This document shows positions 11,168 through 59,129 of a DNA stretch of 64,000 bases, piece after piece. The translations under genes and the position numbers were made by a program. Below the pieces are notes generated by a model that was not told the DNA's origin, did no database searches, and worked only from the letters and a program-made list of their open reading frames with translations. Origin of the DNA: Candidatus Baldrarchaeota archaeon (lineage in GTDB: Archaea > Asgardarchaeota > Baldrarchaeia > Baldrarchaeales > DXJG01); assembly GCA_019056805.1 (NCBI GenBank), contig DXJG01000002.1, positions 154,178-218,177 of the forward strand, written 5' to 3'. Numbering within the stretch: the stretch's first letter is position 1; the number at the start of each line of letters is the position of its first letter.

Positions 11168-12226
<1,059 letters not shown>

Positions 12227-20442: not shown

Positions 20443-22899
20443 TTGCACTTGAATTTAAGGACTGTGGGGGTGGTATTGGTGGCCACGGCTACCGACGAAG
20501 GAAAAGTTGAAATTAAAACGTGTTCTGAAAAATTTTTAAACGGTCTTGAGAAAATATCTGAACTTGCTATTAAAACTGCGATACAAAATAACCATAGAAG
20601 AATGTTTGTTTTTTGTGGAAGCGACATAAGAAGAATTGATGCCGCTTATAAGGTTTTTTCAAAATTTATTGAAATTAAAGGCAACATGCAAGTAAGAGTA
20701 CTTTACGTTGCAGTGGAGGTTTCTTCTGGAAAAGATAAAGAATTATATACGGAGTTTAAATCAAGAATAGAGAAGAATTTCAAGGACGTTGAAATTAATG
20801 GAATCAGTTTTAAAGATACAGATAACGTTATGGGTCAAACTTTTGACGTGTTAGTTTTAGATTTAAATAGAGACCTAAACCCCAACGATCTTGGTCGATT
20901 AATTGAAACCGTTAGCGGTGGAGGCATTATAATAGCAATAACTCCTCCAATGGATAAATGGTTAGTTTTGAAAACACGATTTCACAAGAAACTTATAACC
21001 CCCCCTTGGACGATTGACGATATTCCCGGTAGGTTTAACAAGAGATTCATAAGGAAACTAAAGGAGCATAAGGGAATTTACATTTTCGACGTAGACGAAG
21101 AAATTGCTTTAAAAGTTATTAAGGAAGAAGTTTCTGATAAAGGTAGGATAACCATAAGTATTCCTGAAGAACATCTGCTACCAAGAGAAGTTTATGAATT
21201 AGCTTTAACCCAAGGACAAGTTAGAGCTTTAAAAGTAATGGAAAGGTTCTTAGTAAGAAAGGAGAAAAAACCAGCTATTGTCATGATCGCCGATAGGGGT
21301 CGAGGAAAGAGCGCTGTCGTTGGGATAGCTATAGCCGCGATAGCACATGAGTTAAAGAAAATTTTTTCCTCAGGTAAAGTTTCTGTTCTTGTAACTTCTC
21401 CACAAATAGGAAATGTCAGGACACTTTTCGAGTTTGCCGTCAGGACGCTTAAAAGATTAGGTTATTCACCACAAGTAAAGAAGCGAGACTACGATATTGA
21501 GGAAGTAAGGGCTTCAGGTATCAAAATTTTTTATGAACCTCCATGGGAGGCAATTGAACGAAAAGCTGACATCACTGCCGTAGATGAAGCTGCTGGCATA
21601 CCAATTCCCTTACTTTTCCGATTCTTAAAAAGAGCTAAAAGAATTATTTATTCTTCCACTATTCATGGATATGAAGGAGCTGGCAGAGGTTTCTCTATAA
21701 GATTTCTGGGCGGATTAAGAGAAATTAAAAATATAGAGGTTAACATGGTTGAATTAGAAGAACCCATCCGATATAGTGACGGAGATCCCATTGAACAATG
21801 GCTCTATGATGCTCTTCTTCTTGACGCAGAACCAGCTCAACTTTCAGTAAGAGATATTAAACAAATCAAAAATATGCAAGTCGTATTTAAGAAAGCCGAT
21901 TTAGACAAGTGGTTTATTAACGGTAATGAGAAAAAACTGAGACAATTTATTGGCATTTATGTATATGCCCACTATAGAAACCAACCAAAAGATGTAGCTC
22001 TTTTAGCAGATGCACCTCATCATGAAGCCTTCATGCTTGAGACTAAAAACGGGAAAATTGTTAACGCTATCCAAGTAGCCTTGGAAGGAGGATTACCTGA
22101 CGAAGTCATAAAGGAGATTTATAGCGGATTTGAACCAGATGGAAACATAATACCAACAATTGTGGAGAAACATTTCCGAGATACTGAATTTCCAAAACTC
22201 AAAGGATATAGAATTGTTAGAATCGCAACACATCCGCAAGTTATGAGCATGGGACTAGGAAGTGAAGGGTTGTCAAAACTTTGCCAAGAAGCCGAAAAGA
22301 GAGGACTAGATTGGGTTGGAGCTGGTTTCGGCGCAACACCAGAACTCCTCCGCTTCTGGATAAAAAATGGTTTTATTCCAGTGCATGTTAGCCCAAGGAG
22401 AAATCCCATTAGCGGAGAATATTCTACAATAGTAATAAAACCTCTTTCTAAGAAAGCAAAAGAAATTACTAAGTTTATCTTTAAAGAATTTAAAATGAAG
22501 TTTGTTGAGTGGTTAAGAGACATACATTACGACATGGAACCTGAAATAGCCATGTACATCCTTAATTCAAAATTAGAAGATATATCAGAAAGACTTTACG
22601 AGTTAAAGCTAACAGAAAGTCAACAAAAGCGACTCGAAGCATACGTTAAAGGAGTATTATACTATGAAGTTGTCTGTGATGTAATTCGTGAATTGGTAAA
22701 AATGTACTTTTTAGATCATACTTCAGAGAGAACAAAACTTTCTGAGGGAAAAACATTGTTGCTTATCCTAAAGAGTTTACAAGCAAGAAGCTGGAAACAA
22801 ACTCTGGATGTTATTAATTTAGAGCCTGCAGCAGCATATACAATGTTTAGAGCGGCAATAAAGAAACTATACAAAGCTTACATCGGGAAAATAGACTAA
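20443..22899 (+). CDS. tmcA: tRNA(Met) cytidine acetyltransferase TmcA (Kre33/NAT10 homolog): helicase-like ATPase plus GNAT
   Basis: Walker A motif DRGRGKSA, the DEAA segment, and a C-terminal GNAT and tRNA-binding region. 818 aa. The exact start is uncertain. Confidence 0.8.
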   Translation: MHLNLRTVGVVLVATATDEGKVEIKTCSEKFLNGLEKISELAIKTAIQNNHRRMFVFCGSDIRRIDAAYKVFSKFIEIKGNMQVRVLYVAVEVSSGKDKELYTEFKSRIEKNFKDVEINGISFKDTDNVMGQTFDVLVLDLNRDLNPNDLGRLIETVSGGGIIIAITPPMDKWLVLKTRFHKKLITPPWTIDDIPGRFNKRFIRKLKEHKGIYIFDVDEEIALKVIKEEVSDKGRITISIPEEHLLPREVYELALTQGQVRALKVMERFLVRKEKKPAIVMIADRGRGKSAVVGIAIAAIAHELKKIFSSGKVSVLVTSPQIGNVRTLFEFAVRTLKRLGYSPQVKKRDYDIEEVRASGIKIFYEPPWEAIERKADITAVDEAAGIPIPLLFRFLKRAKRIIYSSTIHGYEGAGRGFSIRFLGGLREIKNIEVNMVELEEPIRYSDGDPIEQWLYDALLLDAEPAQLSVRDIKQIKNMQVVFKKADLDKWFINGNEKKLRQFIGIYVYAHYRNQPKDVALLADAPHHEAFMLETKNGKIVNAIQVALEGGLPDEVIKEIYSGFEPDGNIIPTIVEKHFRDTEFPKLKGYRIVRIATHPQVMSMGLGSEGLSKLCQEAEKRGLDWVGAGFGATPELLRFWIKNGFIPVHVSPRRNPISGEYSTIVIKPLSKKAKEITKFIFKEFKMKFVEWLRDIHYDMEPEIAMYILNSKLEDISERLYELKLTESQQKRLEAYVKGVLYYEVVCDVIRELVKMYFLDHTSERTKLSEGKTLLLILKSLQARSWKQTLDVINLEPAAAYTMFRAAIKKLYKAYIGKID

Positions 22900-29900: not shown

Positions 29901-31265
29901 CTAAGCAGCTTTGATGAATTTTTCCTCGTACTTTCGTAGAAACTCAGAAGTTTCCTTGATATCCGAGAACAATTTTCGTACTCGTTCAATATCATCAATA
30001 CTTACTTCCCTTCTGCCTTCTTCCTTTGCATTCACAGCCGCTGGTGTGATCAGAAGAGATGCAAATCTCAAAGAACTTTCTACAGCAATGTCTGCTAGTT
30101 TTTCTAAAGCATCCTTGTTAAGTTCCACACCTTCGGCTTTTGCTCTTATTTTTAAGATCTCTATTACTTCTTCTCGAGAATATGGCCTAGTACAGATGAT
30201 TAGAAGTCTGTCTAAGAAGTCTAGCGGCATTCCCATTGGAGATACATAGTCGGTTCCTCGTATTTTCGTTACTCCACGGTTTGTAGCTAAGATTATAATT
30301 GGTGCTAGTTCACTTTCCATCGCTCGTGTAAGAAATGAAAATGCTTCCAAATCTAAGAGACTTGCTTCATCAATGAATAACACTCCTGGGAGAATCTCTG
30401 CTTTTCCTTGTTCGACCCATTCTTTCACCATCTCATCGACTTGTTCTCTGATTTCTGGGTCAATTTCTTTTTCTTCTCTTCCACCAAAGAACAAAGAAAG
30501 CAAAGTACCACTTGATCTCCTTGCTGTCATTTCATCTAGGTCGTTTAAAGTGACTGTGTAAACAAATTCTTTTTCTTTTAATATTGGCCCTGATGGTACC
30601 GGAATTATACGTTCAGCTTCAATATCGTAAGTTTTTTCTCTTTCGGCACTGCGTCCAAGTCTGGTTACCCTTCCTGTTTCAGCATCTATCATTATTATAT
30701 CACCTTCTGAGATTCCCTGATTTATTAGTTGCATTGCTACACTTTGTCCTACTTCAAAGGTCTTTGTTTCACTTTTTGTTCTTAATGTAATCCTAGCTGA
30801 TTCTGGTATTTGCATATAGGGATTGTAGGGGTTCCTAGTCATTTTTATATTCAGACTTTTCACTTCTCCTTCGTAGATTTTTCTTAGTTCATGTATTCTG
30901 ATTCCAATGGATTTTCGCATAGCGCTCATAAGAATTTCTGTCTTTTTCTTCTCTTCACTATAAATTTCACTGCCAGCAATCATTACAAAGGGTACATCTT
31001 CACCTAACTCTTTTGCAATCGCGATGGCAATTGCAGTTTTACCTGTCCCAGGTGGCCCGGCTAGAAGAACAGCTCTTCCAGCCATTTTTCCTTCTTTAAT
31101 CATATTAACTATTATACCAGCCGCTTCTCTTGCTTCAGTTTGTCCTACCATTCCATCTGCAATAAGTTCAGCTTTTAAATTTTTTAATCCGAGGCCTTTA
31201 ATATGGCTATGGGCACCAATTCTTTCAAATCTGCCTGGTCCACGAACTTCCCGAATTTCCGTCAC
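29901..31265 (-). CDS. RuvB-like AAA+ ATPase (TIP49/RuvBL family)
   Basis: N-terminal IGAHSHIKGLGL, Walker A motif GPPGTGKTAIA, the inserted OB-like domain II, and Walker B ahead of ..VLFIDE.. Size is that of a TIP49 homolog. Confidence 0.8.
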   Translation of the reverse strand: MTEIREVRGPGRFERIGAHSHIKGLGLKNLKAELIADGMVGQTEAREAAGIIVNMIKEGKMAGRAVLLAGPPGTGKTAIAIAIAKELGEDVPFVMIAGSEIYSEEKKKTEILMSAMRKSIGIRIHELRKIYEGEVKSLNIKMTRNPYNPYMQIPESARITLRTKSETKTFEVGQSVAMQLINQGISEGDIIMIDAETGRVTRLGRSAEREKTYDIEAERIIPVPSGPILKEKEFVYTVTLNDLDEMTARRSSGTLLSLFFGGREEKEIDPEIREQVDEMVKEWVEQGKAEILPGVLFIDEASLLDLEAFSFLTRAMESELAPIIILATNRGVTKIRGTDYVSPMGMPLDFLDRLLIICTRPYSREEVIEILKIRAKAEGVELNKDALEKLADIAVESSLRFASLLITPAAVNAKEEGRREVSIDDIERVRKLFSDIKETSEFLRKYEEKFIKAA

Positions 31266-38634: not shown

Positions 38635-41600
38635 TTGAAAGCGATGTTTAAGCATGCTTGCCCGAATTGTGAAGGTAAAATTTCTGATGAAAGATTAGCT
38701 ATGGGAGTACCATGCGAAAACTGTCTGTCTATAGATATTAATCAACTAAAAAACCTATGTTCAAAAATGAATCCCTTGGAATTTAAAATAAAAATTCTGG
38801 ACATTTTAAGGGCTCAAGGAACACTAAAAAAGTATTATGAACTTGTTAAAATCGAAAAAGAATTGGCCGAGTTTGAAGATTTATTTAGAAAGGGAACTGG
38901 AAGCAGGCTTTGGAGTGCACAGCGAGAGTGGGCAAGAAGAGTCTTAAAAGGGGTAAGCTTTGCCATAACCGCTCCCACGGGCATAGGTAAAACAGTATTT
39001 GGAATGACTATGGCCATATATCTAAGCACTAAAGGCAAAAAATCCTATATTATTCTCCCCACAACAGTACTTGTTAAGCAGACACTAGATAGAATCAAAG
39101 AGTTTTTAGAAAAAACAGGAATTCAAATTAAGGTTGCTGGTTATTACGCCAAACTTTCCAAGGATGAAAGAGAAGAATTTAAGCATATGGTTGAAACTGG
39201 AGACTTTAATATACTTGTTACAACTTCACAATATCTTGCATTAAAATTTGACGAAGTATCAAAACATAAATTCGATTTTGTATTCGTTGACGATGTAGAT
39301 GCGCTCCTTAAGTTATCAAAAAACATCGATAGAGTTTTGTTACTATTAGGGTTCAGCAACGAAGCTATTAATCTAAGTTTAAGATTAATAAAATTAAAGA
39401 AAGCGTATGTACGAGCAAGAGCAAATGAAATAGATAAAATAGAACACGAAATAGAAGAAATAACAGAAAAAATAAATTCTCTAAAAGAAAAAACAAAGCC
39501 GGGAACATTAATAGTCTCCACTGCAACTGGTAAAGCAAGAGGCGATCGAGTGAAGTTGTTTAGAGAGTTGTTAAACTTTACAATCGGGTCAGCAAGTGAA
39601 GGTTACAGAAACGTTCAAGACCTTTATATTCCAAGAGAAAGAAACGTAGAAGAACAGTTACATGCATTAGTTAAAAAACTAGGAGCAGGTGGAATTATCT
39701 TTGTCACACTCGAAGAAGGAATAGATTTTGCTGAAAAAATCGCCAATTTTCTAAATGAAAGGGGAGTTAAAGCTGAAGCTTTCCACGCAGGCAAGAAAAG
39801 CCCTGAAATCATAGATCAGTTTTCTAATGGTGAAATAGACATACTTATTGGGGTTGCAAGTCATTATGGACTTTTAGTCAGAGGTCTTGATCTACCACAT
39901 CGCGTACGCTACGCTATTTTCACCGGGGTTCCAAAATTCAAATTCAGCTTAGATGTTAGCGAAGAAACCAGTCCAACAAGAATATACATGCTTCTATCCG
40001 AAATATCAGAATACTTACCCAGCGAGGAAAAAGAAAAAGCCGAAAACTTTCTCAGGAAAATCAGACAATACTTAATGAGACTAACACCAACACAGTTACA
40101 ACAAATTAGAGATGCACTAACTGCCAAAACAAAAATAAATAATACATATCTTCAAAACATCTTAGACCTCTATGTCAACGTCATAAATTTTGTTGATTCC
40201 ATGCTTAAAAGAAAAGACATTCTTGATAAGATAAGAGAAAGTCCATTTATATCTCTAGAAAAAATAGACGAAGAACTCTATATACTAATACCAGATGTAA
40301 GAACCTACATTCAAGCTTCGGGAAGAACATCGAGATTATTTGCAGGAGGAGTAGCTAAAGGGATTTCAATACTCCTAGTAGATAATGAAAAGATCTTCAA
40401 CGGTCTTGTAAGGCAACTAAGATGGAGATTCGAAGAAAGCGAATGGAAACATCTAAACGAAGTAGACCTAACTTCGCTACTTAAAGAAGTCGATGCCGAC
40501 AGAGAACTTATTTTAAAAATTAAACGAGGAGAAATAACGATAGAATTAAAAGACCCAGTAAAATCAGCACTTCTCATAGTAGAATCTCCAAGTAAAGCAT
40601 TTACTATTTCCACATTTTTCGGCAAACCAGCAAGAAGAAGATTACATGGATTACCAGTCTACGAAGTTGTAACTGGAGATTTAGACTTAAACGTAGCTGC
40701 AAGCGGAGGTCATATTTTTGATCTAGTTACTGAAGAAGGGTTCCACGGTGTGATGACCGAAAACGGGGTTTTCATACCAATATATACAACAATAAAAAGA
40801 TGTATGACATGCAGAGAACAATTTGTAGAAGATGTAGACAGGTGTCCACGATGTAAATCCACAGAAATAAAAAACTCCCTAGATAATGTAAAAGCACTAA
40901 GCGAAATAGCCTCTGAAGTAGATATAATCCTTATAGGAACCGATCCAGATTCTGTTACGGGAGATTCAGAAGTTTTGGTGAATTTAAATGGAAAAGTATT
41001 CCTATCTAGGATCGACGAACTATTTGAAAGATTAAAGAGTTCAAAAGAATTTTACTTTTTCACTAAGAGAAATCATGAATATCTTGAACCAAAAGATAAT
41101 AGTTATTTAAAAGTATTAGGAGTTGATAAGCACTTTGACACTCGATGGGTAAATGTAAATTATTTCATTAGGCATAAAGTTCAAAAAGAAATTTATGAAA
41201 TCGAAACAGCAACAGGCAGAAGTATAAAAGTGACTGGAGACCACTCCTTATTTACACTTAAAGATTTCCAGCTTCAAGAACTTAAAATAAGCGAAATTAA
41301 AATCGGAGATATGTTAGTAGTTCCACGAAGACTGGTATGTAATGAAAATAGTCTTGAATATATTGACATTTTAGATTTTAAAGACTTAGGTGCGAAAAAA
41401 GTAGACGAAAAACATGTTAAGATTGGAAAAAGTAAACCTATACCAAGATACATAAAGCTTGATAAAATTTTTCTCGAGTTTCTCGGTCTATGGATAGGTG
41501 ATGGTTCATTCCACAAAGATAGATATGTACGCATTTCTGTCATTGATAAAGAGTCAAGAAAAGTTGTAAAGGAAATAGCTAAGAGATTCGGAGCAAAGAT

Positions 41601-43629
41601 ATATGAAGAAAAGGACAATGCAACACTTACAATAATGTCAAGGGCTCTTTACCTTATTTTAAAGAAAGTTTTCGGTTTAAAGCATGGTGCAGGTTCAAAA
41701 GAAGTTCCATCTATAATTTTTTCTCTTTCTAAAGAACAAATATCAGCTTTTCTAAGAGGATACATCAGTGCTGATGGTACTGTGTCTAAAGGAGAACCTA
41801 ATTTTTCAACAAAATCCAAAAAACTCTTTGAACAACTTAGAACGCTATTTCTAATGTTAGGAATTGTGGTTAAAAAATACGAAGATAACGGGGTTCTTAG
41901 AGGATTTATCCATGCAGAGTGGATATCCGATTTCATAAATAAAATTGGCTTTCTTCAGGAAAGTAAAAATAGTAAGATAACTCCTAAGAAAGGAATAAGG
42001 AATTACATAGATGTATTTCCCGTGGAAGGGTTAAAAGGATGCATTAAGACGAATCCCAGTTATGCAGAGGCAATATATAGATCTGGGATAATGGGAAGAC
42101 GGAGATTGGAGAACTTTTTGCCATTTATAAAAAATGAAACATTGAAAGAGACTGTTAAAAGCGTTCTAAATTCGGATATTATGGTCGAAAAAGTTGTTAA
42201 AATTAGAAAAATAGAAAAATTTAATGATTATGTTTATGATTTTGATACGGAAACTGATAACTTTATAGCAAACAATATTCTCGCCCATAATACCGAGGGG
42301 GAGAAAATTGGTTGGGATATAGCTACTGTCTTATCACCGTATGCGCACCAAATTAAACGTGTAGAATTTCATGAAATAACAAAAATGGCGATTAGGAATG
42401 CGCTTGAAAATCTTAAAGAAATAGATGAAAACAGAGTATCAGCACAACTGGTACGTAGAATAGAGGATAGATGGATAGGTTTCGAGTTAAGTAGACGTCT
42501 TTGGCAAAGATTTCGGGATTATCATCTCTCTGCAGGCAGAGTTCAGACCCCGGTTTTAGGTTGGATAATAGAAAGATATAAGGAATTTCTAAAAAGTTGG
42601 AAATATGTTTTCTGGGTGAAGCTATCAAATCAATACATAGTGGAGCTCAGAGATCTTGGGGGAAAGCCTTACGAGATTGCTGAGAAACTTCGCGGTTCAG
42701 ATGTTAAAATTATATTCCTTGAGGAAACTTTAGAAGATTTGAATCCACCTCCACCATTTACAACTGATGAAATGTTGAGAGAAGCATCAAGACTCTTAAA
42801 ATTCGGTGCACAAGAAACTATGATTCTTGCACAAGCGCTTTTCGAATCCGGTCTAATAACTTACCATAGAACGGATAGTCACCGAGTAAGTAATGTAGGA
42901 ATAAGAATCGCTAAGGAATACATAACTCAAGAAATTGGTGAAGAGTATTTTCATGCAAGAAAATGGGGAACAGAGGAAGAAGGAGCTCATGAATGTATCC
43001 GTCCAACACGTCCACTAAACGTGGAAAGACTAAGAACTCTAATAGAGGAAGGAGTAATAAAAACAGCAGAAACAATGACATGGCAACACTACAAACTATA
43101 TCAACTCATATTCAACAGATTTATTGCAAGCCAAATGACACCTGCGAAAATAAAAAGAATGAAGGCAAAAATAAAGTTCAATGAAATAGTTGAGACTGAA
43201 ATAGAAGGAATTACAGAAATAGTTGAACCAGGATTTACAACGATACAACCAATAAAAACGATACCCAAATTAAAAGAACCACTAAGCGTAGTTGATGTTA
43301 AATTCAAAAAAATACCAACAATAAGTCTTTATACGCAAGGAGATATTGTTGAACTCATGAAAAAGAGAGGAATAGGAAGACCATCTACGTATGCAACAAT
43401 AATACAAACATTACTTGAAAGAGGTTATGTAGAAGAGAAAAACAAAATGTTAAAACCTACAAAACTGGGAATCAAAGTATACGAGTACCTATCAAAATTT
43501 TACAGCAACTTAGTATCAGAAGAAAGAACTAGAGAACTGGAAAGAAAAATGGAAGAAATAGAAGAAGGAAAGGTAAATCATCAACAAATCTTAAAGGATC
43601 TCTACCAGGAAATAAAAAGTCTCAAATGA
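38635..43629 (+). CDS. rgy: Reverse gyrase (helicase plus topoisomerase IA) carrying an intein
   Basis: N-terminal Zn finger, SF2 helicase motifs (APTGIGKT, DDVD), the TOPRIM motif TDPD//TEGEKI split by an insert, and topo IA domains. 1664 aa total, 1217 aa without the insert. Confidence 0.9.
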   Translation: MKAMFKHACPNCEGKISDERLAMGVPCENCLSIDINQLKNLCSKMNPLEFKIKILDILRAQGTLKKYYELVKIEKELAEFEDLFRKGTGSRLWSAQREWARRVLKGVSFAITAPTGIGKTVFGMTMAIYLSTKGKKSYIILPTTVLVKQTLDRIKEFLEKTGIQIKVAGYYAKLSKDEREEFKHMVETGDFNILVTTSQYLALKFDEVSKHKFDFVFVDDVDALLKLSKNIDRVLLLLGFSNEAINLSLRLIKLKKAYVRARANEIDKIEHEIEEITEKINSLKEKTKPGTLIVSTATGKARGDRVKLFRELLNFTIGSASEGYRNVQDLYIPRERNVEEQLHALVKKLGAGGIIFVTLEEGIDFAEKIANFLNERGVKAEAFHAGKKSPEIIDQFSNGEIDILIGVASHYGLLVRGLDLPHRVRYAIFTGVPKFKFSLDVSEETSPTRIYMLLSEISEYLPSEEKEKAENFLRKIRQYLMRLTPTQLQQIRDALTAKTKINNTYLQNILDLYVNVINFVDSMLKRKDILDKIRESPFISLEKIDEELYILIPDVRTYIQASGRTSRLFAGGVAKGISILLVDNEKIFNGLVRQLRWRFEESEWKHLNEVDLTSLLKEVDADRELILKIKRGEITIELKDPVKSALLIVESPSKAFTISTFFGKPARRRLHGLPVYEVVTGDLDLNVAASGGHIFDLVTEEGFHGVMTENGVFIPIYTTIKRCMTCREQFVEDVDRCPRCKSTEIKNSLDNVKALSEIASEVDIILIGTDPDSVTGDSEVLVNLNGKVFLSRIDELFERLKSSKEFYFFTKRNHEYLEPKDNSYLKVLGVDKHFDTRWVNVNYFIRHKVQKEIYEIETATGRSIKVTGDHSLFTLKDFQLQELKISEIKIGDMLVVPRRLVCNENSLEYIDILDFKDLGAKKVDEKHVKIGKSKPIPRYIKLDKIFLEFLGLWIGDGSFHKDRYVRISVIDKESRKVVKEIAKRFGAKIYEEKDNATLTIMSRALYLILKKVFGLKHGAGSKEVPSIIFSLSKEQISAFLRGYISADGTVSKGEPNFSTKSKKLFEQLRTLFLMLGIVVKKYEDNGVLRGFIHAEWISDFINKIGFLQESKNSKITPKKGIRNYIDVFPVEGLKGCIKTNPSYAEAIYRSGIMGRRRLENFLPFIKNETLKETVKSVLNSDIMVEKVVKIRKIEKFNDYVYDFDTETDNFIANNILAHNTEGEKIGWDIATVLSPYAHQIKRVEFHEITKMAIRNALENLKEIDENRVSAQLVRRIEDRWIGFELSRRLWQRFRDYHLSAGRVQTPVLGWIIERYKEFLKSWKYVFWVKLSNQYIVELRDLGGKPYEIAEKLRGSDVKIIFLEETLEDLNPPPPFTTDEMLREASRLLKFGAQETMILAQALFESGLITYHRTDSHRVSNVGIRIAKEYITQEIGEEYFHARKWGTEEEGAHECIRPTRPLNVERLRTLIEEGVIKTAETMTWQHYKLYQLIFNRFIASQMTPAKIKRMKAKIKFNEIVETEIEGITEIVEPGFTTIQPIKTIPKLKEPLSVVDVKFKKIPTISLYTQGDIVELMKKRGIGRPSTYATIIQTLLERGYVEEKNKMLKPTKLGIKVYEYLSKFYSNLVSEERTRELERKMEEIEEGKVNHQQILKDLYQEIKSLK
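40951..42291 (+). mobile_element. Intein (447 aa) with LAGLIDADG homing endonuclease domain inside the reverse gyrase TOPRIM motif
   Basis: Begins with Ser after TDPD and ends with HN before TEGEKI. Contains LAGLIDADG motifs LGLWIGDGSF and LRGYISADGTVS. Confidence 0.8.
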
Positions 43630-51921: not shown

Positions 51922-52080
51922 TTATACATAACCTATGTATTTAAAACATTAACCGAGAATTTTAGAGATAGTAGTATTAATATATCAATGCAATGTAAAT
52001 AATTTACCCATCAATAAAAATAAATATCAGATAAACTTACAAAGTCAAAAGAACAAATAAAAGAAAGGAGGCGCAAAGTT

Positions 52081-52392
52081 ATATCCTTAGAAAGATGTCC
52101 GATCTGTGGTTTACCAAAAGATATCTGCCAATGCGAAGCAATTGCAAAAGAAGAACAAAGAATAAAGATTAGAGTAGAAAAAAGAAAATGGGGGAGAGAA
52201 GTAACAATAATAGAAGGAATAGACGAAAAAGACATAGACCTCCACCAACTAGCTACAAAATTAAAACATAAACTTGCATGCGGAGGAACTGCTAAAAACG
52301 GAAAAATAGAACTTCAAGGAGACCACAGAGAAAGGGTAAAAACGCTACTTATCCAAGAAGGATTCTCAGAAGATAACATAGACATAACCTAA
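52081..52392 (+). CDS. Translation initiation factor aSUI1 (eIF1 homolog), probable AUA start
   Basis: Translation ..[42 protein letters not shown]...[22 protein letters not shown].. matches the archaeal SUI1 pattern. There is no in-frame ATG/GTG/TTG after the upstream stop. GGAGG at 52067..52071 is followed 9 nt later by ATA at 52081. Confidence 0.7.
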
Positions 52393-52506
52393 GGTCATCA
52401 ACATTTATCCCTAAAATTTAGAGGCTTTCCAAAATTCAATACGAATTTATTATCCCAGCTTTTTATTTCTTAATAACGGTTTAAAGCGTAAAAAAATATT
52501 GTAGTC

Positions 52507-53457
52507 TTAAGGTTCTATTTTTATCTCCAGCTGTTTTATGAGTTCTTTATATCTATTGCGTACCGTCACTTCTGTTACATGTGCTATTTCTGCTATTTCT
52601 CGTTGTGTTCGTCTTTCACCTTCAACAATGCCCGCAATATAAATCGCTGCCGCAGCTAATCCCGTAGGATCTTTGCCCGCAGTTAAACCGAGTTCTCGCG
52701 CCCGCCTTACAATATCAATAGCTAATCTCAGTACCTTGCCCGATAAATTTAATTCTTCGCCAAAACGCCCCACAAAAACAACCGGGTCACAACCCGGGAC
52801 ACTTACATCTAATCTACGCAGCAATAGTCGATAACAGCGACCTAATTCTTTTTTATTAACCCTGCTTTCCCTACTAATTTCGTCTAAGGTTCTAGGCACA
52901 CCATGCAGTCTGCATGCTGCATATACGCTTGCAGCAATCATAGCTTCAATACTACGGCCCCTAATCATACCACCTACAACTGCACCTCTATATAGTAGTG
53001 CGGCTTCGTCTTTGACTGGTTTAGGCAACTGGAGTTGTGATGTTAAACGATCAAGCTCAGCCAGTGCAAAAGTAAGATTGCGATCTATGCTGTTATGAAC
53101 CCTCGTTCTGATTTGCCATTTTCTTAGTCTATAGATCTGTGCCCTTCTTATAGGACTTAATTTTCTTCCAAGCGCATCTCTATCACGCCAATCTATTACT
53201 GTTGATAACCCCTTGTCGTGTATAGTTGGCGTCATGGGACCTCCAGTTCTTGCACGTTTCTCTCTTTCCTCTGCCGTAAACGCTCTCCATTCTGGTCCTG
53301 GATCTACCATATGTTCCCTAACAACTAAACCGCATTTTCCGCAGATTAATTCTCCACGAGTTGAATCCAAAAGTAGTTCTCGGCTACCACATTCTGGACA
53401 CCAATCAATAGTCTCAAAAAGCTTTTTTGAAGTTTTTTCAGAATCTTTTTCAGCCAC
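52507..53457 (-). CDS. tfb: Transcription initiation factor IIB (TFB)
   Basis: N-terminal Zn ribbon (CPECGS...CGKCG), B-reader region and two cyclin repeats. A GTG start at 53457 is preferred because a GGAGGG Shine-Dalgarno precedes it. The ORF extends to 53511. Confidence 0.85.
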   Translation of the reverse strand: MAEKDSEKTSKKLFETIDWCPECGSRELLLDSTRGELICGKCGLVVREHMVDPGPEWRAFTAEEREKRARTGGPMTPTIHDKGLSTVIDWRDRDALGRKLSPIRRAQIYRLRKWQIRTRVHNSIDRNLTFALAELDRLTSQLQLPKPVKDEAALLYRGAVVGGMIRGRSIEAMIAASVYAACRLHGVPRTLDEISRESRVNKKELGRCYRLLLRRLDVSVPGCDPVVFVGRFGEELNLSGKVLRLAIDIVRRARELGLTAGKDPTGLAAAAIYIAGIVEGERRTQREIAEIAHVTEVTVRNRYKELIKQLEIKIEP

Positions 53458-55628: not shown

Positions 55629-55851
55629 TTTTCTCCCTCTTTTCGAGGTCTTTTAATAACATCAAAAATATATAAATTGTTTCTATATTTTCATCTGGGA
55701 AGGAAACAATTAGTTAAACTATGAAATTACCGTATTACGAGCCGTATAAAAAGTTTATGAATAGACATTTATTCAATAAACCTACCAATTATATGGCAAA
55801 ATCTTTTTACACATAGTGCACATTTTTAAGATTAATTACGGGGCGAGTAAC

Positions 55852-56226
55852 ATGTCTGGCAAAGTGAACCAAATAAAGCAAATACTCCAACTCTTAGAGA
55901 TAAACACACCAGGAATCGAAGCCAGCGCTATAGTATCTCTTCAAGGTCTGCCAATAGTCTCTGCCATGCCAGCAGGTGTAAACGACGATGTAGTCGCTGC
56001 AATGACAGCCGCCGTACTCAGCGTAGGCGAAAAAGCCTTACAAGAATTAAGAAAAGGAAGACTAGTAAAAATATTGGTTGAAGGAGAAGAAGGATACATA
56101 ATAATGACAACTATCGGCCGAAACGCCATACTTACAGTTCTAGCCAAACAATCCGCAAATCTAGGGCTAATTTTCCTAATGATGAAACAAACAGCCCAAA
56201 AAATAGAAAATCTCCTAGCAGAATAA
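55852..56226 (+). CDS. Roadblock/LC7 (MglB-like) domain protein
   Basis: About 125 aa alpha-beta-alpha pattern typical of roadblock/LC7 (..IEASAIVSLQGLPIVSAM..). Confidence 0.7.
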   Translation: MSGKVNQIKQILQLLEINTPGIEASAIVSLQGLPIVSAMPAGVNDDVVAAMTAAVLSVGEKALQELRKGRLVKILVEGEEGYIIMTTIGRNAILTVLAKQSANLGLIFLMMKQTAQKIENLLAE

Positions 56227-57029: not shown

Positions 57030-59129
57030 TTAAAGTTCTGGATTTATGAGAAGTCCTGCCTTCACAAGTTCGAGCTTGTTCTTTAACTCTGTTATTCTAT
57101 TGTGCAACATGAGAAGTCTTGACGCAGAAGTTAACAGTTTTGCTCCGAGCGCAATGTCCTGCACGAACCCCAAAACCATCATGAAGGTACTAAAGGTTTC
57201 ACTAACATTTCCCAGTACTCTTTCAACCAAAAGTTCAATGAAGCTTTCCCAACTTTCTTCTATGGCCTGATATAGATCCATCATGAATGAATAGTCTATT
57301 TCTTCCATCCCCGGTATTGTGCCCAGTAATAGTTTCTCGATTCTTTCAGTCAACATTTCCCATGCCTCTTTATGTAGTAAAAGTTCCTTCATGTATTCTC
57401 TCGCCACTCTAGCTAGTTCTTTGGTGATCCGTTCGATGTCATGTTGCCTCTGTTTCTCGAGATCCGTCCTGTCCAACTCTTCTTGTACTCTCTGTATCTG
57501 TTCGGAAAGTCCACTCTCCTTCAATATGTCCTCGACATAATCTATCGGTTCATCCACAAGTTCTTTCAGAGGAGTTGAGAGTTCTTTATCTATCATTTCG
57601 TGATCTATCTTAAGCATGCTTTTCAGAAATGACAAGAAGGCCACTCTCAGTACCGGATTCACCTGCAAGGCGTTCTTGTTTGTCTCGTACATTTTGACGA
57701 GATCTTCTTTGGTTTTGATCGTCCGCATAAGTTTGTCCTGTAAGGTCCTGATGGTCATCCTAGTAGGTTCATCGATCTCTATGGGTTTTACTATTTCCTC
57801 AGGAGCAGCAAGTTTTGGTGGCTTCAGCTTTGTCGCCTTTGATGCAACCTCTTTCAACTTCCTTACCTTCTTTTTGACTTTCTTAGGCTTAGGTGGTTTG
57901 GGCTTTTTCGGCTTGGCAATCACTTTCTTCTTTATACGAACCTCCACTTCCCTCTTCGGTTTCTTGGGCACCCGCTCGACTTCCGGTTTCGTGACCTTTG
58001 TTGCAATTTCTTTCGGCAATTTTACCTCAATTTCCTCTATTTTCACTTTACTTTTTATTTTATTCACCATTGCTTTTTCGATATCACTTATCGGTGGTAT
58101 TATTTTCTCGATATCGCATTCTTCTGGTGCCATCTTCTTCTTTGCCTTCTTAACCTTAACAGTATACTTAATATGATCCTTAAAGGAATTGGTGGGAAGA
58201 GGTGGTATTTGTTGCACTCGTCCATCCGGAGTGATACTTATATTATAAATCTCTTCACTGACGACGGTATGAATCTCATCACACTCAACAATCAACGGAA
58301 ATCCGACAAATGCCACCTTACCAGTGGCTTTACACTCACTTCTAGAAATGGAAAAAGTCTCAAACTTACCGCCGTCCTTGGCGTGGCCTCTGTGTATGTT
58401 CCTTTTGTGCTCAAATGATTCATACGTAAATTCATATGCGCTTATCGTAATGTCTTCAGAAATTTGGTAGGGAATCTTTTTCCCCAACTTTATTGTCAAG
58501 TGAAAATCTCCTGATACTGTATCATAAACGGACATTCCAGCTTTTTCGGATCTGCCTTCGGAGGATATGGGTTTCTTTATGGCAAAACTTTTTCCTTCCT
58601 CAAATGGGAGTAGCTTTTCGAAGTCCGAGTAGTAGACAGAAACATTGGAATACCTCTTAACAATACCAGGTGCGTGTAGAATCCATAAAGTTCCATAAGG
58701 ACTCCCACTAGCCCTAGAAATCTCTTCCATAATTCCCTTATCCGATTTTATTGATACATGTTTATAAGCCTCCATATGATCTCCGGATACTTCAATGAAT
58801 ATCTTCCGCTTAGTCCTAGAACCAGCAAAACTGGTAATAGATGTATATGTCCACTTATATTCGTCGGGTGAGACGTAGTATATTCTATGATGGCCTTCAG
58901 TGTTTGCGATATAAAAATTATCCTCTAAGATCAGCAGTCCTTTTTCATCAAATATTTGTCTTAGTTTAGGGTGCGCCAGTTCATAGAATTTCTTATCACC
59001 AGATGTCAGAACTCTCACAGTATACTCTATTATATCTTTTAAAACAAATGATCGCTCTTTACTTTGCCATTCTCTAATACTGGTCTTGACCAAGATGTCC
59101 CCACTTTCCAGTTCGAACATCTTGTACAC
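57030..59129 (-). CDS. Large hypothetical protein with central K/P-rich low-complexity linker
   Basis: N-terminal globular region, then a linker (KPKKPKPPKPKKVKKKVRK...), then a C-terminal helical domain. No recognisable family. Confidence 0.45.
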   Translation of the reverse strand: MYKMFELESGDILVKTSIREWQSKERSFVLKDIIEYTVRVLTSGDKKFYELAHPKLRQIFDEKGLLILEDNFYIANTEGHHRIYYVSPDEYKWTYTSITSFAGSRTKRKIFIEVSGDHMEAYKHVSIKSDKGIMEEISRASGSPYGTLWILHAPGIVKRYSNVSVYYSDFEKLLPFEEGKSFAIKKPISSEGRSEKAGMSVYDTVSGDFHLTIKLGKKIPYQISEDITISAYEFTYESFEHKRNIHRGHAKDGGKFETFSISRSECKATGKVAFVGFPLIVECDEIHTVVSEEIYNISITPDGRVQQIPPLPTNSFKDHIKYTVKVKKAKKKMAPEECDIEKIIPPISDIEKAMVNKIKSKVKIEEIEVKLPKEIATKVTKPEVERVPKKPKREVEVRIKKKVIAKPKKPKPPKPKKVKKKVRKLKEVASKATKLKPPKLAAPEEIVKPIEIDEPTRMTIRTLQDKLMRTIKTKEDLVKMYETNKNALQVNPVLRVAFLSFLKSMLKIDHEMIDKELSTPLKELVDEPIDYVEDILKESGLSEQIQRVQEELDRTDLEKQRQHDIERITKELARVAREYMKELLLHKEAWEMLTERIEKLLLGTIPGMEEIDYSFMMDLYQAIEESWESFIELLVERVLGNVSETFSTFMMVLGFVQDIALGAKLLTSASRLLMLHNRITELKNKLELVKAGLLINPEL

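Follow-up and report, generated by a model that had tools for sequence, protein, structure and literature searches.

The window, by which we mean the whole 64-kb stretch of DNA analysed here, carries a gene for aIF1, the archaeal SUI1/eIF1 homologue, on the plus strand. The gene sits between a divergent radical-SAM gene on the opposite strand and a convergent TFB gene that ends at 52507 (minus strand). The following features of the locus are referred to throughout:

52016..52027, plus strand: candidate TATA element, the A/T-rich box AAAAATAAATAT
52065..52071, plus strand: Shine-Dalgarno (SD) sequence AAGGAGG, with the core GGAGG at 52067-52071
52072..52080, plus strand: SD-to-start spacer CGCAAAGTT, 9 nt
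52081..52083, plus strand: ATA, the probable aIF1 initiation codon
52081..52392, plus strand: aIF1/SUI1 coding sequence, 103 codons followed by TAA (stop at 52390-52392)
52095..52097, plus strand: out-of-frame ATG (+2 frame), 23 nt from the SD, opening a 25-codon ORF that ends in TAG
52096, 52105, 52126 and 52132, plus strand: Cys codons of the aIF1 zinc knuckle
52460..52471, plus strand: candidate oligo-T terminator, the T-rich run TTTTTATTTCTT

The initial annotation read the frame as SUI1 and noted that it has no canonical start codon, and both statements hold. The product matches the Pfam SUI1 family (PF01253) with an E-value of 1.1e-23 (83.9 bits, cutoff 25.5), NCBIfam NF002096 with 158.6 bits (cutoff 98) and TIGR01158 with a score of 123.2 (cutoff 111.65). 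The match to the solved aIF1 chain 4mo0_A, which is also found in entries 5jb3 and 5jbh, has an E-value of 3.1e-34 and aligns residues 4-102 of the query to residues 3-101 of the chain. The archaeal-type N-terminal zinc knuckle (C-x2-C ... C-x-C) is present as C6, C9, C16 and C18, which are invariant in the ortholog alignment. A KRKWGR motif occupies K34-R39, with K34 nearly invariant and R35-R39 invariant across the alignment, and the ACGGT motif at A66-T70 is kept as well. All family-invariant residues are intact in the window protein, whose C-terminus ends ...NIDIT*. The NCBI family models apply the name YciH. The E. coli protein of that name has the SUI1 fold domain in common with the window protein, but its match (1d1r_A, E = 1e-11) is far poorer than that of 4mo0_A and covers only query residues 30-95, without the N-terminal four-Cys segment. 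Because of the better match to 4mo0_A and the four invariant archaeal cysteines, aIF1 is the right name for the protein and YciH is not. The stretch 52081..52392 evidently encodes a functional, full-length aIF1. No second aIF1 copy was found in the 64-kb window, and the exact protein is absent from the protein collection that we searched. The aIF1 proteins of S. solfataricus and P. abyssi are known to bind the small ribosomal subunit and to discriminate against non-AUG starts; by homology, the window protein would be expected to bind the small subunit and to reject non-AUG starts likewise.

Since the gene upstream is on the opposite strand, aIF1 needs its own promoter. The box AAAAATAAATAT is kept between the window and the leaders of six relatives (L001, L002 and L081-84), with 10-nt and 1-nt indels in its flanks, and it is a candidate archaeal TATA element. 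The aIF1 transcript would be monocistronic, with a 5′ end predicted near 52045-52055 and a leader of ~30 nt. This transcript may terminate at the T-rich run TTTTTATTTCTT, which lies where aIF1 and TFB converge. No RNA structure stood out around the start, as folding of 52030-52150 gave z = 0.04. A hairpin in which the SD pairs with codons 2-3 (AAGGA/UCCUU) was considered and dropped, as it is not kept in L162, the most divergent of the relatives described below. An Rfam search of the window returned no matches. Neither tRNA nor rRNA genes were found in the 64 kb, hence the initiator tRNA and the 16S 3′ end do not lie there.

Genes elsewhere in the window that bear on the organism or on the candidates discussed below, or that we noted in passing, are:

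20443..22899, plus strand: NAT10/TmcA-type RNA cytidine acetyltransferase
29901..31265, minus strand: TIP49/RuvBL-type ATPase
38635..43629, plus strand: reverse gyrase ORF of 1664 aa, whose Toprim and topoisomerase parts are separated by an intein with a LAGLIDADG endonuclease domain
55816..56226, plus strand: Roadblock/LC7 protein
57030..59129, minus strand: ORF of 699 aa with a lysine- and proline-rich central stretch and no Pfam match at E<=1e-5

Reverse gyrase is the usual marker of a hyperthermophile, and the organism can be taken to be one because it encodes this enzyme.

The start codon of aIF1 and its conservation

The frame of aIF1 is closed upstream by TAA 52021. Between this TAA and the stop codon of the gene it contains no ATG, GTG or TTG, and for this reason an ORF lister that relies on canonical starts gives no ORF in it. 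The initial annotation placed the start at ATA 52081, 9 nt past GGAGG, and called this the only near-cognate codon between the upstream stop and the first conserved Cys. The start itself is strongly supported: in the protein alignment the ATA stands where orthologues of the Odin, Frey and TACK types have their Met, it is kept in four lineages, and NCBI independently annotates close orthologues from the same codon. The claim that no other near-cognate codon exists is too broad for the interval given, as in-frame single-mismatch codons also occur at ATA 52024, AAG 52042, ATA 52057 and AGG 52066/52069. All of these are upstream of or inside the SD, and between the SD and the first zinc-knuckle Cys the claim is correct.

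The ATG at 52095 is out of frame, as had been noted, and the ORF that it opens is a dead end. A start there would delete Cys1. The ATG appears to result from the juxtaposition of the codons AGA and TGT and not to serve as a start, and the same kind of overlapping ATG (xxA-TGY) is seen in many orthologues that begin with a normal ATG.

GGAGG is found 6-10 nt before the canonical start of 12 of the 45 long ORFs in the window, so the organism uses SD-led initiation, and a 9-nt spacer is normal for it. Seven of these 12 GGAGG-led ORFs start with GTG or TTG. The aIF1 gene is the sole SD-led long ORF without a canonical start in the 64 kb. A wider use of AUN starts in this genome was considered, but the only two other candidates in the window, weak ones that combine an SD with ATT near 11829 (plus strand) and 56204 (minus strand), were rejected because they are antisense to real genes, the former to a 342-aa ORF at 11168-12196 and the latter to the Roadblock/LC7 gene.

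Orthologous loci were recovered by tblastn-based scans, which are independent of gene calling, and by exact-protein look-ups. The arrangement of AAGGAGGC, a 9-nt spacer and ATA-TCN was found in the window and in 13 further sequences, drawn from no fewer than 10 assemblies, and spans four lineages. The 14 sequences are the window, L001 and L002 (species-representative genomes), L081 (an ENA contig), L082-84 (JGI metagenomes), L173-175, L176-178 and L162; the four lineages are the window, L173-175, the L001 group and the deep branch L162. The assemblies with the ATA arrangement come from different projects. The gene order radical-SAM/B12 gene, aIF1, TFB is seen in all four lineages, in every sequence that reaches far enough, and Freyarchaeota have the same arrangement. 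The SD AAGGAGG is identical in 14/14 clade sequences, L162 included, and the ATA is likewise kept in all of them, aligned with Met1 of the orthologues. The spacer varies in sequence from lineage to lineage (CGCAAAGTT, CGCAAAAAC, CCGGATGGT) and is constant in length, at 9 nt in all four. In the triplet directly before the ATA, none of the three bases is shared by the window and the L001 group. A 1-nt indel that would make ATG 52095 an in-frame start, which the initial annotation had proposed to look for, is ruled out by the agreement of the 14 sequences from at least 10 independent assemblies. The same annotation had suggested a comparison of ortholog 5′ ends; the close orthologues keep ATA, and ATG occurs at the aligned position only in the distant Odin, Frey/Jord and TACK lineages.

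The close relatives carry the record labels Baldrarchaeia or Baldrarchaeota, which put the window among the Asgard archaea. The aIF1 genes of L001 and L002 differ at 8 of 312 nt, yet one record is labelled Baldrarchaeota and the other, an older record, Odinarchaeota; at least one of these phylum labels is outdated.

The substitutions in aIF1 are those of a working protein-coding gene. Between L173-175 and the window there are 20 differences in 312 nt, all of them synonymous (20 vs 0 changed codons). The L001 group differs from the window at 35-38 positions, with 27-32 synonymous vs 3-4 non-synonymous codons; the neighbouring radical-SAM protein is 76% identical between the two. The L162 protein has ~71-72% amino-acid identity to that of the window, and the third positions of conserved codons are identical in 35 of 72 cases (49%). 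These patterns point to strong purifying selection on the aIF1 coding sequence. Lineages whose coding sequences have diverged at 11-12% of positions are identical over the opening 32 nt (P ~0.02), which hints at an additional constraint on the initiation region. Identity of the third base of the ATA across the deepest split would by itself say little, given the 49% background identity.

L162 has an in-frame TAA five codons before the ATA, with only the SD in between (TAA AGG AGG CCG GAT GGT ATA), and L173-175 have one nine codons before it; these stops exclude longer N-termini. Within the 13 in-frame codons before the ATA, the window and the L001 group differ by three non-synonymous and two synonymous changes, and the 10-nt and 1-nt indels mentioned above lie farther upstream. 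This substitution pattern and the indels argue that the region upstream of the ATA is not coding.

A further ATG was seen in L162 (JBQSHC010000001, Baldrarchaeia), out of frame and inside the SD-to-start spacer (GGAGGCCGGATGGTATA). With GGAGG 4 nt away and the ATA 5 nt downstream, it begins an overlapping ORF of 21 codons; the window lineage lacks this ATG. It could compete with the AUA start in L162.

Start codons of archaeal aIF1 genes

We surveyed the aIF1 start codon at 179 loci, grouped into 74 clusters at 90% identity, by reading the codon in the Met column. ATG is used in 66 clusters, TTG in four, GTG in one, ATA in two (both of them from this clade) and CTG in one. The Odin-, Frey- and GB-1867-type orthologues start with ATG, and two near relatives start with TTG and GTG. 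A general bias of archaeal aIF1 genes toward weak starts was considered and discarded, with ATG in 66 of 74 lineages standing against it. The ATA start appears to be limited to one class and is not a general archaeal trait.

The single CTG cluster is from Hadarchaeota. The aIF1 genes at L035 and L054 (MAG157 and MAG026) have no ATG, GTG or TTG, and a CTG stands in the ortholog Met column behind GGAGGTG. The junction reads GGAGGTG CG TAA GAG CTG CAG GAA ATC TGC, which places the CTG ~12 nt upstream of the Cys1 codon and one codon past the TAA of a co-directional gene, whose C-terminus is uL29-like by eye. Around this junction ~70 nt are identical in the two genomes, which diverge elsewhere, and the NCBI records of Hadarchaeota aIF1 (MEW6222302.1 and MEW6592463.1) are annotated from the CTG. 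The case differs from that of Baldrarchaeia in that the mismatch of CUG is in the first codon position and that of AUA in the third, and in that reinitiation or translational coupling with the upstream gene may be involved. The Hadarchaeota start has an independent origin, and rare starts arose in two separate clades. When the clade in which the trait was ascertained is set aside, there is one rare-start lineage among ~72, for which P is ~0.07 at a background of 0.1%; this recurrence is only suggestive.

A different pattern was noticed in L105-L160, which are mostly metagenome contigs labelled Bathyarchaeia or unlabelled. These have a strongly conserved TTGAG-N-A-NN-ATG, 12 nt upstream of the aIF1 ATG, with an in-frame TTG three codons before the ATG and no obvious SD. 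The motif may be a short-leader or promoter-proximal signal, or the TTG may be an alternative start.

Possible feedback through the AUA codon

Two factors that guard start-codon selection are established to limit their own synthesis through their start sites. The bacterial infC gene is autocontrolled through its AUU start (Butler et al., 1987, as cited in PMC4705826), and eukaryotic eIF1 is autoregulated through an AUG in poor context (Ivanov et al., 2010, as cited in PMC6237735 and PMC4705826). The 30S complexes of S. solfataricus bind both AUG and AUU mRNAs without aIF1, and only AUG mRNA with it (PMC4705826). The analogy to infC and eIF1, together with the rejection of AUU by aIF1 in vitro, makes a feedback on aIF1 plausible. 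The CTG start in Hadarchaeota and the unchanged opening 32 nt of the coding sequence add weakly to this. The window aIF1 resembles infC and eIF1 in that its own initiation site is non-canonical or suboptimal. This site is kept in all four of the Baldrarchaeia-type lineages sampled (14 sequences), in a gene that has ATG in 66/74 archaeal lineages and CTG in Hadarchaeota.

The feedback would work as follows. The aIF1 gene would be transcribed alone, between the divergent radical-SAM gene and the convergent TFB gene, and the strong AAGGAGG would position the 30S subunit on its mRNA. Initiator Met-tRNA would then pair with the AUA that follows the 9-nt spacer, leaving a C:A mismatch in the third codon position, and the protein would begin (M)SLERCPICG. 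As aIF1 destabilises near-cognate complexes, abundant aIF1 would reject its own AUA and scarce aIF1 would let it through. We give the reading as a whole, i.e., AUA initiation combined with aIF1-dependent feedback, a probability of roughly 0.45. Negative translational feedback through the conserved AUA codon of Baldrarchaeia, considered on its own, we put forward tentatively and at not quite even odds. The initial annotation had drawn the same parallel to infC and eIF1; its structural half is strongly supported and its autoregulatory half is reasoned by analogy, so that the interpretation is partly supported overall.

The likeness to infC is closest at the level of the mRNA. In both cases the gene of a fidelity factor would begin with a near-cognate AUN codon, mismatched in the third position, behind a good SD, and IF3 itself rejects such codons, which makes a simple negative feedback loop. 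The folds of IF3 and aIF1 are unrelated, however, and the AUU start of infC is widespread in bacteria with its feedback experimentally proven, whereas the AUA start is found in one archaeal class with a feedback that is proposed. The likeness to eukaryotic eIF1 (SUI1) is at the level of the protein: the two factors are homologous (PF01253), they would share the logic of a factor that discriminates against its own suboptimal start, and the organism of the window is an Asgard archaeon. In the eukaryotic case the AUG is kept, its context is weakened and the start is found by scanning, whereas in Baldrarchaeia the codon would be non-AUG and positioned by an SD.

The proposed loop presupposes that translation begins at AUA 52081, which we consider very likely. 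Initiation might instead occur upstream at a near-cognate codon (ATA 52057 or AAG 52042), downstream at ATC 52102, or at ATG 52095 with a programmed frameshift. There are indeed further near-cognate codons in frame upstream and an ATG 14 nt downstream of the ATA, and the aIF1 of S. solfataricus was once annotated with a -1 frameshift, but resequencing showed that frameshift to be a sequencing error (PMC8211752). The upstream candidates precede the SD, are removed by in-frame stops in L173-175 and L162, and lie in a region with indels and without coding-type constraint. ATC 52102 and ATG 52095 would both lose the invariant Cys1 and are 30 and 23 nt from the SD, and an xxA-TGY ATG is common in orthologues with a normal start. 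A start at any of these sites is improbable in our view. Still less probable, to the point that we give it hardly any credence, is that the gene is decaying or that its ATG is masked by a base-call or assembly error. Such an explanation draws only on the absence of a canonical start and on the failure of Prodigal-type pipelines to find the full gene, and it would have to account for an initiation region that 14 sequences share in identical or homologous form, in at least 10 assemblies made by different projects. The changes between lineages are overwhelmingly synonymous (20 vs 0; 27-32 vs 3-4), which rules out a pseudogene, and the family-invariant residues are intact in what is the only aIF1 copy of the window.

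It is also quite possible, although we would put it below even odds, that AUA is the start and has no regulatory role. It would then have been fixed by drift, or would serve a constitutively lower translation, with the strong SD and an A-rich, unstructured leader compensating for the weak codon. All of the structural evidence given for the feedback is equally expected here. The confinement of the trait to one clade, with ATG in 66 of 74 aIF1 lineages, is compatible with it, and GTG or TTG in seven of 12 GGAGG-led ORFs suggests that start selection in this organism is permissive and that AUA may be tolerated. One third-position base kept over a nearly saturated split (35/72 identical) is not decisive. 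The literature that we searched, with incomplete coverage that leaves absence unproven, describes neither a non-AUG start nor autoregulation of an archaeal aIF1; the idea of autoregulation is apparently unpublished. Against a start without a regulatory role is the fact that a single A-to-G transition restores ATG, yet this has been fixed in none of the four lineages, whose synonymous sites have diverged from 6% up to near saturation. The gene that is affected is, moreover, the very one whose product discriminates against such codons, as with infC, and the eIF1 gene also has a weak site; in 64 kb, aIF1 is the only gene of its kind.

If the feedback reading is true, autoregulation of a fidelity factor through start-site stringency would occur in all three domains, and aIF1 would be the first archaeal fidelity factor found to limit its own synthesis in this way. 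The archaeal case would combine a bacterial device, the near-cognate AUN codon behind an SD, with a eukaryotic-type protein, and, in a lineage that lies near the stem of the eukaryotes, it would link the circuits of infC and eIF1. The unit of SD, 9 nt and AUA is a natural and compact test substrate for the existing archaeal in vitro initiation systems.

Database annotation of the gene

The 90%-identity cluster that contains the window aIF1 has 22 members. The NCBI entries OYT26605.1, OYT37218.1, MEX2702230.1, MCD6164087.1, MHA1582004.1 and MHA1723018.1 are 103 aa long and start at the ATA, and the L162 protein (MHA1593807.1) is likewise annotated by NCBI from its ATA. The gene, its neighbours, the SD, the spacer and the ATA of these Baldrarchaeia entries, named YciH, are all as in the window, and the close group has 95-97% amino-acid identity to the window aIF1. 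Neither the start codon nor its meaning is remarked on in the entries.

The JGI, ENA and Logan calls are shorter, with 93 aa from a TTG (Leu11) or 72 aa from a GTG (Val32), and among them we found no full-length aIF1 call for this clade. The shortened calls, which extend over dozens of contigs, lose the zinc knuckle. Unless rare starts are allowed, Baldrarchaeia genomes may thus seem to have a defective aIF1 or none, and analyses of genome completeness or of gene presence could misjudge the factor.
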